In this document: in pieces, positions 44,536 to 45,298 of the stretch
How positions within the stretch are numbered: the first letter of the stretch is position 1
Layout: each line of letters starts with the position of its first letter
From: Escherichia phage vB_Eco_T-01
Length of the DNA: 64,000 nucleotides
Direction: 5' to 3' (one strand)
Sequence record: PQ438391.1
The notes under the pieces: generated by a model
Databases searched by the model: none
Seen by the model: the letters and a program-made list of their open reading frames with translations, nothing else
Told to the model about the DNA's origin: nothing
Translations under genes and position numbers: made by a program

Positions 44536-44549
44536 ATTAGCCTCTGTAG

Positions 44550-44557
44550 TATTTATA
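44550..44557 (-). promoter_or_regulatory. Late promoter TATAAATA proximal to gene 19
   Basis: tatttata on plus strand, 15 nt upstream of the gene 19 start. Confidence 0.5.
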
Positions 44558-44608
44558 TCCCTATGTTTAACCTAGGGCATATAGAATTAAAGAATTAAGG
44601 ATATAGTG

Positions 44609-44616
44609 TATTTATA
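44609..44616 (-). promoter_or_regulatory. Second late promoter TATAAATA, distal to gene 19
   Basis: tatttata on plus strand, between the HNH-gene hairpin and gene 19. Confidence 0.45.
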
Positions 44617-44617
44617 T

Positions 44618-44635
44618 GGCCTGCCGAAACAGGCC
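44618..44635 (-). terminator. Hairpin ggcctgtttcggcaggcc directly downstream of the HNH-like gene
   Basis: Perfect 6-bp stem 8 nt after the ORF stop. Confidence 0.5.
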
Positions 44636-44642
44636 TTTAGAA

Positions 44643-45293
44643 TCATTCTAGTAAATCCCAAAGATCTACACTATTTCTTTTTGATTTTTCTCGGTTAGAT
44701 TCCCAAGTGATTATTTCTAAATTATTAATACCGCCAATTATTTTAGCAGGAATTAAATTATCAAAACCGTATTTGATAGATACCTTATGATCAAGTTGGT
44801 AAGCACCTTTTGTACCACACACTCCTATTTTATCAGCATTTGGCCATTTTGACCAAATTTTCTTATGCTTACGAGTTTCTTTATATACCAATGAAATATA
44901 TTCACGCATTTCAGATTTATTTGGGTTCCATCTTGGATGATTTACGCCATGCATACATTCTACTGTTTTTCCTTTATTCGCGGAACCATATGAATTATTG
45001 CGCATTTTATCTTTATGACGGCAATCACGACAAATATCAGTGTTTCTTCCAATGCGTTGGTTATATTCAATTCCACATTTATCGCAACGGCATTTTACAT
45101 ACGCGGTACTACCTTTAATGTCTTCAACTTTAACATCAATTTCATAATACCTAAATCCATGTTTAACCGCTCCAAGAGGTGTTAATTTATAACTCTTTGA
45201 TTGATAATGTTTAAAATTTGATGGTACAATTTTCACTTTAATAAATTTAGAAATAATCACTTGATTCCTCGAGAATAGGGGCCGAAGCCCCAT
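44643..45293 (-). CDS. HNH-family endonuclease-like protein with N-terminal zinc-finger-like motif, inserted between genes 18 and 19; start uncertain (ATG at 45293 lies inside a hairpin; GTG at 45260 has a GAGGA ribosome-binding site)
   Basis: CRCDKCGIEYNQRIGRNTDICRDCRH (Cys4-like) and AYQLDHKVSIKYGFDNLIPAKIIGGINNLEIITWESNREKSKRN (HNH-like). Confidence 0.7.
   Translation of the reverse strand: MGLRPLFSRNQVIISKFIKVKIVPSNFKHYQSKSYKLTPLGAVKHGFRYYEIDVKVEDIKGSTAYVKCRCDKCGIEYNQRIGRNTDICRDCRHKDKMRNNSYGSANKGKTVECMHGVNHPRWNPNKSEMREYISLVYKETRKHKKIWSKWPNADKIGVCGTKGAYQLDHKVSIKYGFDNLIPAKIIGGINNLEIITWESNREKSKRNSVDLWDLLE
45278..45291 (-). terminator. Tetraloop hairpin ggggcttcggcccc (minus strand) immediately after gene 18
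   Basis: Same motif as at 16704 and 35692; overlaps the first ATG of the HNH ORF. Confidence 0.45.
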
Positions 45294-45298
45294 ATCAA

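Follow-up and report, generated by a model that had tools for sequence, protein, structure and literature searches.

A candidate HNH homing-endonuclease cassette between the tail sheath and tail tube genes of T4-like phages

Between gene 18 (tail sheath) and gene 19 (tail tube) of Escherichia phage vB_Eco_T-01 (sequence record PQ438391.1), a minus-strand open reading frame (ORF) occupies a site that is vacant in T4. We analyzed this ORF within a 64,000-nt stretch of the genome (the window, whose positions serve as coordinates throughout). It very probably encodes an HNH-type nuclease, belonging to a divergent branch that curated models miss, an assignment that rests on invariant residues, the predicted fold and a bridging sequence, P0230. 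We further propose, with a probability of about 75%, that the ORF is a free-standing homing-endonuclease gene, present or recent, at the 18-19 locus. A preliminary description made from the letters of the window had proposed a free-standing homing-endonuclease cassette at a T4-empty site, and the precise, sporadic presence and absence of the cassette, together with relatives that appear to split genes, speak in favor of that proposal. The cassette is compact and promoter-less, consisting of a hairpin, a Shine-Dalgarno sequence and a GTG-initiated ORF placed directly after the gene 18 stop codon. The encoded protein appears to be modular, with a DNA-binding N-terminal half, a conserved linker, and a C-terminal HNH nuclease carrying a D-H...N...N set of residues.

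To define the limits of the insertion, we used a three-way alignment of the window, phage VEc74 and T4 (NC_000866). The T4 18-19 spacer is 116 nt long and contains no ORF. Its junction consists of CTTGCTGGTTAA, TACGGTGC and ATTCTAAAGGCCTGTTTCGGCAGGCCATATAAATAC in succession, and where the 8-nt TACGGTGC stands in T4, the window has 655 bp (45298 down to 44644, minus strand), which run from the gene 18 stop codon to ATTCTAAAGG. From ATTCTAAAGG on, the window again equals T4: the hairpin (44618-44635), the two TATAAATA boxes and the start of gene 19 are all unchanged. The upstream flank, gene 18 (45299-47278, minus strand), shares 98.5% amino acid identity with T4 gene product (gp) 18, and the downstream flank, gene 19 (44044-44535, minus strand), shares 100% with T4 gp19. 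The window phage groups as a T4-like, RB3/KRT47-like Tequatrovirus, with identities in the 18-19 region of 99.4% to Shigella phage KRT47 and 99.1% to RB3 and RB5-10. The ORF list and the alignment thus agree with the preliminary description in placing a minus-strand ORF between genes 18 and 19, at a site that is vacant in T4. The insert had been given as 44536-45298; the T4 alignment corrects it to 44644-45298, since the remaining 108 nt are native T4 spacer.

The distribution of the cassette was surveyed by running three diagnostic queries in megablast over 50,697 phage records, about 500 of which are Tequatrovirus records. An empty, continuous T4-type junction was found in 382 of 498 matching records, T4 and T2 among them. 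The variable middle of the window allele (allele A) was found in 47 records, including RB3, RB5-10, HP3, KRT47 and Sf22, and the middle of a second allele (allele B) in 70, including T6, ECML-134, VEc74 and PST. The three site states total 499 records, with ~77% empty. The comparison of the junction across T-even genomes that the preliminary description had proposed thus shows that most lack the insert, and the ORF is not, as that description had allowed it might be, present at this junction in nearly all T4-like genomes, T4 included. Presence and absence are sporadic among genomes that are >95% identical. A similar polymorphism is seen in Gelderlandvirus-like phages, where Salmonella phage STP4-a is occupied and two genomes are empty, and in Dhakavirus-like phages, where L020, Bp7 and CHI14 are occupied and L019 and L021 are empty. 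In STP4-a, too, the gene 18 stop codon is followed at once by the cassette, which has a UUCG hairpin and initiates at GTG. The ORF of Bp7, CHI14 and L020 is found at the opposite end of the spacer, just after TATAAATA and a few nt before gene 19. Since the cassette is next to gene 18 in Tequatrovirus and Gelderlandvirus and next to gene 19 in these three phages, insertion has occurred at more than one point in the spacer.

Alleles A and B differ in a segmental manner. Their nucleotide identity is ~97% over the first ~45 nt (hairpin, ribosome-binding site and first codons), ~40% over the middle ~380 nt (N-terminal domain and zinc ribbon), and ~90% over the last ~230 nt (nuclease domain). Accordingly the N-terminal halves of the two proteins cannot be aligned and the nuclease half is common to both, in genomes whose flanks are >98% identical. 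A metagenomic pair, P0010 and P0025, repeats the pattern, with identical ends and an A-like or B-like middle. The simplest reading is that A and B would be two old DNA-binding types, the ends of which have been homogenized by recombination within the phage lineage. At the protein level, allele A shares 49-55% identity with allele B of the same genus, as compared to 61-64% with the versions from Klebsiella and Salmonella phages and 61% with that from a Shewanella phage. Judged by these values, endonuclease similarity does not track phage relatedness. All eight alleles that were read are intact, full-length ORFs that retain the catalytic D, H, N and N. Synonymous to non-synonymous codon changes within the alleles were 13:8 and 13:3 for the most distant pairs, and this synonymous excess indicates that the protein is under constraint. 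Several individual records call for comment. In Shigella phage sb2 (L076, 1-748), the cassette hairpin contains one additional C, single bases differ at scattered positions, and the gene 18 and ORF calls are truncated, all of which looks like sequencing or assembly error and not biology. Two records, MG010123.1 (H28, a 32-kb 'Staphylococcus phage SAJK-IND') and PV654520.1 (H81, 'Pseudomonas phage vB_PSGBLB0006'), are at least 98% identical to coliphage Tequatrovirus here and are probably mislabelled or contaminated database entries. A 59-amino-acid (aa) fragment from WL-3 (P0191) is a possible decayed copy.

We judge the ORF to be a genuine gene, and not a chance reading frame, because it matches PHROG 5104 ('unknown function') at 1e-89, belongs to a large family and shows the synonymous excess. 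A family profile search over 1.84 billion representatives yielded 5262 matches at E ≤ 1e-3, and 1430 at E ≤ 1e-10. The two motifs pointed out in the preliminary description, CxxC...CxxC and QLDHKVSIKYGF...NNLEIITWESNREKSK, were both found in the ORF. The former is a zinc-ribbon-like motif (C70, C73, C88 and C91 in the 216-aa numbering counted from the first ATG, which is used for all residues of this protein; 45021-45086, minus strand) and belongs to the N-terminal half, which is presumed to bind DNA. Among 28 homologues, C73 and C88 never vary and C70 hardly does; the ORF has weak profile matches only to zinc-ribbon and treble-clef models. The N-terminal half comprises a small beta/alpha domain and the Cys4 zinc ribbon, and probably binds DNA. 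The linker motif, G-x-N-H-P-R-W-N-P-N-K (44916-44948, minus strand), has an invariant G116 and nearly invariant R121 and W122. Pfam NUMOD3 is matched by two family members and not by the window protein, and we treat the resemblance of the linker to NUMOD3 as a lead only. In one relative, P0024, the linker G-E-N-H-P-R-W-N-P occurs twice, the copies being separated by a basic spacer of 33 residues. The duplication suggests that the linker may be a repeatable DNA-contact module, as NUMOD3 is.

The candidate HNH (beta-beta-alpha-metal) core lies at 44685-44792 (minus strand), with D168-H169 ending strand 1, N191 in strand 2, and N200 and K203 in the helix, at the spacing YQLDH-x22-NL-x7-N-x2-K. 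D168, H169, N191 and N200 are invariant in 28 close homologues, in 46 diverse relatives, and in 72 non-redundant C-terminal core sequences, and they are the sole invariant columns in the latter two sets. In AlphaFold models, with a pLDDT of 84.5 over the full length and 88.1 for the C-terminal domain, one strand ends with the D-H, the next one opens with the first Asn, and the helix after it contains the second Asn. The fold of this region is predicted to be beta-beta-alpha and may resemble that of its top structural neighbors, the HNH domain of Cas9 and the McrA, Gme and GVE2 HNH nucleases. The core also resembles the Cas9 motif (DVDHIVPQS...DNKVLT...KNRGKS), which serves as a lead only. Profile searches against HNH families (PF01844, PF13392, PF13395 and PF14279), the kind of check suggested in the preliminary description, gave no direct HNH match for the window protein; none of 36 close homologues has a precomputed HNH domain, and 1 of the 46 diverse relatives touches PF01844 (E 0.003). 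The connection to canonical HNH proteins is provided by P0230. A core profile (A7) reaches this sequence among 5.8 billion proteins with an E value of 1.1e-4, and P0230 itself exceeds the PF01844 gathering score (24.9 versus 21.4 bits, residues 63-109). HHalign of P0230 (residues 66-110) against A7 gave a probability of 95.3% and an E value of 2.4e-8, with the D-H, N and N in register. Sub-threshold PF01844 matches occur in three more peripheral members.

Protein Data Bank (PDB) chains were searched by sequence, using both the single protein and a profile of the full family, and only zinc-ribbon noise was returned; Foldseek found no match in the PDB for the full-length model. Profile A7 against the PDB produced hits to leucine-rich-repeat proteins (Leptospira, E down to 4e-12), which we rejected as a repeat-driven artefact. 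The inter-strand HNH loop, I-P-P-E-I-I-G-x-I-x-N-L-x-x-x-P-W-x-E-N, mimics a leucine-rich-repeat unit and is a pitfall for searches with this family.

Relatives of the window protein display a high fidelity to the sheath-tube junction. In 9 of 9 annotated contexts checked, the homologue lies between the sheath and tube genes. These contexts are from Tequatrovirus, Klebsiella phage Mexia, Gelderlandvirus, Dhakavirus, Winklervirus, Citrobacter phage Ci1 (unclassified Straboviridae), Acinetobacter Hadassahvirus, Aeromonas Ceceduovirus and Sinorhizobium Emdodecavirus. In IMG/VR, the homologue adjoins a gp18 or gp19 homologue at 20 of 34 loci (both neighbors at 17, one at 3), and at some of these 20 loci gp18 and gp19 are only 30-50% identical to those of T4. 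The remaining 14 loci have the HNH core alone in common and carry different N-terminal modules. Such core-only relatives are found after the major head gene (L048 and L049) and between SbcD-like and SbcC-like genes (L054, L056 and L059). Two relatives interrupt genes. In Acinetobacter phage 133 (L026, 1570-3647), a 273-aa ORF with the family HNH core splits rnlA into rnlA-A and rnlA-B. In Campylobacter phage CP21 (L027, 115-5186), a 388-aa ORF with this core breaks the gp18 homologue between T4-equivalent residues ~515 and 517. NUMOD3, helix-turn-helix and treble-clef modules are found in other family members. The combination of site-faithful full-length relatives with core-only relatives that sit elsewhere and bear other modules suggests that the family behaves as modular homing endonucleases, in which the DNA-binding half would set the address.

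Further observations were made at these loci. The GenBank note on the phage 133 ORF reads 'some similarity to ORF19.1 of T6', and three more annotated homing endonucleases follow the 388-aa ORF in CP21. Escherichia phage Bp7 (L005, 4170-6382) has a second endonuclease ORF directly after gene 19, annotated 'HNH endonuclease', with weak Pfam matches to SegE GIY-YIG and NUMOD3. Behind it, the portal gene of Bp7 appears in the annotation as a pair of ORFs (4809-5132 and 5138-6382). Two different nuclease insertions thus lie in the tail/portal block of this phage. In STP4-a (L003, from 6581), an 'I-TevIII-like protein' ORF is directly after the gp68 homologue, in the place that gene 21 has in T4. 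It is a further nuclease insertion within this late block.

Two start codons were considered for the ORF, which is 216 aa long from the first ATG (45293) and 205 aa long from a GTG (45260). The homologues all start M-I-I-S/T/D-K, which aligns with GTG-ATT-ATT-TCT-AAA in the window; a Shine-Dalgarno sequence, GAGGA, can be read 5 nt 5' of the GTG (45266-45270, minus strand); and the upstream ATG is replaced by AAG in phiC600P9 and by GTG in Pu-Krd-SF4. These three observations indicate that the true start is almost certainly the GTG at 45260 and that the product most likely has 205 aa. The ORF so defined occupies 44643-45260 (minus strand), in agreement with the ORF list, homologue N-termini and PHROG 5104, and its TGA straddles the right-hand insert junction. 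Annotations in several genera likewise put a GTG or ATG start at the position of this GTG. GAGGA and GTG are not stably paired and are free in the predicted and ensemble RNA folds (region z-score -0.4 to -0.8). Sequestration of the ribosome-binding site or start codon by a hairpin is thus not supported. The preliminary description had the first ATG inside the gene 18 terminator hairpin and expression possibly limited by that structure. The ATG (45293-45291) does overlap a stem, but not that of gene 18's native hairpin, and the argument for structure-limited expression falls with the likely GTG start 33 nt downstream and its free Shine-Dalgarno sequence.

The ORF is bracketed by two stable UUCG hairpins, as had been described, but the T4 alignment reverses their assignment: what was taken for the gene 18 hairpin arrived with the insert, and what was taken for the ORF's own hairpin is T4 spacer. 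The cassette 5' hairpin, GGGGC-UUCG-GCCCC (GGGGCTTCGGCCCC; GGGGCUUCGGCCCC), is at 45278-45291 (minus strand; -10.8 kcal/mol, z-score -2.5). It starts 7 nt past the gene 18 stop codon, is missing from T4, and provides gene 18 with a replacement 3' hairpin, which could attenuate read-through from gene 18. A counterpart follows gene 18 in STP4-a, Ci1, AS-zj, phiM7 and AbTZA1. The native hairpin, GGCCUGU-UUCG-GCAGGCC (44618-44635, minus strand; -12.8 kcal/mol, z-score -3.7), is the same in T4, where it is 3' of gene 18; in the window it is 3' of the inserted ORF. Neither hairpin is followed by a run of T, and a terminator scan found no terminators. The two TATAAATA late-promoter sites reported between the ORF and gene 19 are present (44609-44616 and 44550-44557, by pattern search). 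They are the native promoters of gene 19, unchanged in T4, and the region that contains them (44550-44616, minus strand) is 100% identical in T4 and outside the cassette. In Acinetobacter phage AbTZA1 (L004, ~2911-2961), the stem and loop of the post-gene-18 hairpin contain a TATAAATA box (GGCTCTCTATAAATAAAAATATAGAGAGCC), such that a late promoter and a hairpin overlap just 5' of the endonuclease ORF.

The presence of the cassette is linked to a synonymous patch in gene 18. Over 12 codons (A-R-S-I-N-Y-I-T-L-N-F-V; 45350-45385, minus strand), 50-85 nt before the stop, the window has 11 synonymous substitutions relative to T4, in codons for part of the conserved peptide PARSINYITLNFVATATGADFDEL. 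This is the densest window-versus-T4 cluster over genes 17-20. Gene 18 contains three such islands, with 11, 9 and 7 synonymous changes per 36 nt, the latter two ~718 and ~1561 nt before the stop. No island of >5 changes was found in gene 17 (47310-49142), gene 19 or gene 20 (42386-43972), which, like the other late genes of the window in the ORF list, are on the minus strand. In a first sample, the variant patch at 45350-45385 was present in 8 of 8 cassette-bearing and 4 of 12 empty loci, including T2 (hypergeometric 0.004, for sequences that are not independent). In the full collection it was present in ~110 of 114 occupied records and in about one third of the 382 empty ones, the latter share being estimated from evenly spaced rows. 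A T4-type patch accompanies the cassette in sb1, sb3 and Ec_YwIITB1 (a chimeric query of T4-type patch plus insert). These exceptions and the two further gene 18 patches led us to reject the patch as an obligatory self-immunity site and to downgrade it to a linked haplotype or possible co-conversion scar. The association with the cassette is strong but not absolute and would fit either co-conversion in the course of homing or linkage alone. At several codons, outgroup genera look like the A-type patch, so that either patch state may be ancestral.

In its general design, the cassette resembles known mobile nuclease genes of T-even phages. Several T4 seg and mob genes are cassettes that have no promoter and carry a hairpin close to the ribosome-binding site (PMC2988022). 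MobA-E of T4 and Hef of U5 are likewise small ORFs between conserved genes, unevenly distributed among close relatives, with an HNH-type motif, often promoter-less and riding host transcripts, and sometimes with a hairpin near the ribosome-binding site (PMC2988022, PMC2993671). In contrast to these, the window family constitutes its own PHROG 5104 and has no Pfam HNH match; its HNH core is C-terminal, behind a zinc ribbon; and the cassette is in the late structural block and not in the nucleotide-metabolism region. I-TevIII of RB3, from the same phage group, also combines an HNH motif with a zinc-binding DNA-recognition element in a modular 'beads on a string' arrangement (PMC2988022). That gene, however, is inside the nrdB group I intron, whereas the window ORF is free-standing and intergenic. 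No sequence relationship to I-TevIII was detected by any profile used, with no pairwise comparison made. As with SegF and SegG, the cassette adjoins a conserved gene and is inherited together with a nearby flanking haplotype, here the gene 18 patch 50-85 nt inside. SegF and SegG homing involves cleavage at a distance and co-conversion of flanking markers. Both are GIY-YIG nucleases for which cleavage sites have been mapped and marker exclusion has been demonstrated, unlike the window family, which is predicted to be HNH. With canonical HNH nucleases (PF01844; Cas9 HNH, McrA, Gme and GVE2) the family shares the D-H general-base pair, the strand-2 Asn, the helix Asn and the predicted beta-beta-alpha topology. 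It differs in a longer loop between the D-H and the first Asn (22 residues, two short helices), in the absence of Cys pairs around the motif, and in falling below the detection limit of all Pfam HNH models.

We propose the following scheme for the cassette. Late transcription of the ORF would occur by read-through from gene 18 transcripts past the cassette hairpin, and translation from the GTG would be low or modest. In a mixed infection, the enzyme would cut or nick the gene 18/19 region of a cassette-less co-infecting relative, the gene 18 patch at 45350-45385 being no more than a candidate for the target. Recombinational repair would then copy the cassette, usually with some flanking gene 18, into the cut genome. 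Several points weigh against this interpretation. Among curated profiles for HNH nucleases, homing endonucleases or defence systems, none matches the window protein directly (Pfam and NCBIfam at E ≤ 1; PADLOC), and there is no family member with a known cleavage site, target or homing event. The gene 18 patch is not obligatory, given sb1, sb3 and Ec_YwIITB1, and gene 18 has two other dense patches. The divergence of allele-A-type relatives roughly tracks that of gp18 and gp19 (Ci1, 51% versus 52%; Mexia, 64% versus 71%), which vertical descent with losses predicts as well, and the strict location across very distant phages could reflect a retained phage function. The last two points, along with purifying selection on the ORF, would suit an ancestral accessory gene of the T4 superfamily that has been inherited vertically at the sheath-tube junction and repeatedly lost, its nuclease serving the phage in competition, host DNA processing or regulation. 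The full-length family is indeed confined to sites between sheath and tube, in coliphages, in phages of Acinetobacter, Aeromonas and Sinorhizobium, and in distant metagenomic T4-likes alike. We nevertheless consider such a gene unlikely, as the empty sites are clean and identical in 382 records, the very different alleles A and B occur in genomes with flanks >98% identical, the insertion point in the spacer varies by clade (gene 18 side or gene 19 side), and domain-sharing relatives split genes elsewhere.

The cassette might instead have been moved by ordinary homologous or stem-loop recombination, in the manner of the promoter/stem-loop (PeSL) elements of T4-type phages, with the encoded protein uninvolved. 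Two GC-rich UUCG stem-loops bracket the ORF, the ends of alleles A and B are homogenized, and GGGG...CCCC stem-loops flank shuffled ORFans in RB49 and phi1 (PMC2839356). PeSL elements are recognized by flanking repeats, each a sigma-70-type early promoter with a stem-loop, in a hyperplastic region, an arrangement that was not found here. The two stem-loops share no homology and are not at the insert boundaries, no sigma-70-type promoter accompanies them (7 promoter-like sites were found versus 5.4 expected), the site is in the conserved late structural block, and the catalytic residues are strictly conserved. We regard this explanation as improbable. A packaging-associated HNH nuclease of the HK97 gp74/GVE2 type, assisting the terminase encoded one gene upstream, is harder still to reconcile with the data. 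A required partner of the terminase would be expected throughout the lineage, whereas this gene is missing from 382 of ~500 Tequatrovirus records; ~77% of Tequatroviruses, T4 and T2 included, are without it, so it is not needed for packaging. The large, sequence-variable N-terminal module is also atypical of the gp74 type. T4 gp17 has its own nuclease, and T4 packages by a headful mechanism. Just as improbable is a decaying or inactive homing-endonuclease remnant that has lost the ability to cut DNA. Phages contain many defunct homing-endonuclease genes, that of T4 I-TevIII for example (PMC2988022), but here the eight alleles are full length with D, H, N and N intact, and the pattern of non-synonymous to synonymous change (dN/dS) is one of constraint.

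A broader version of the homing interpretation can be put forward tentatively. The N-terminal domain and zinc ribbon may mark an ancient homing lineage locked to the sheath-tube junction across the T4 superfamily, with long-lived specificity alleles whose nuclease halves have been gene-converted. The specificity alleles would, on this speculative account, be A, B and the Bp7/CHI14 type, representing distinct DNA-binding halves within single genera. Its reach might conceivably extend over Straboviridae subfamilies, Sinorhizobium Emdodecavirus and distant metagenomic T4-likes, although we rate each of these suggestions as doubtful. If true, it would mean either that selfish alleles compete at one locus, or that a partly domesticated nuclease mediates exclusion at the tail-gene block when phages co-infect.

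The family has received little attention. The T6 version is in UniProt as Q38434 'ORF19.1', without a function, and is mentioned in some GenBank notes. We found no published description of T6 'ORF19.1' or of any 18-19 homing endonuclease in the literature, and a 2010 homing-endonuclease census lists none of this kind for RB3 (PMC2993671). Database labels for the family are inconsistent. Besides hypothetical protein they include holin, head morphogenesis protein and type II restriction endonuclease, and a single entry reads homing endonuclease. The element is ordinary in kind for a T-even phage; what sets it apart is an uncharacterised, un-modelled HNH family with an unusually deep site fidelity. 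That curated HNH models miss the family constitutes a concrete annotation gap.

Taken at the strength given above, the finding would add an unrecognised HNH family, with >5000 cluster representatives that are nearly all 'hypothetical' or mislabelled, to the mobile nucleases of T-even phages. It also places this family in the classic laboratory phages T6, RB3 and RB5-10, where it is testable at once. The A/B pair is a natural domain swap for how a homing enzyme changes its target. An active enzyme encoded between two essential, highly expressed tail genes would bias the inheritance of the tail block in mixed infections, and such a bias would be relevant to the old observations of partial exclusion among T-even phages and to the design of phage cocktails.

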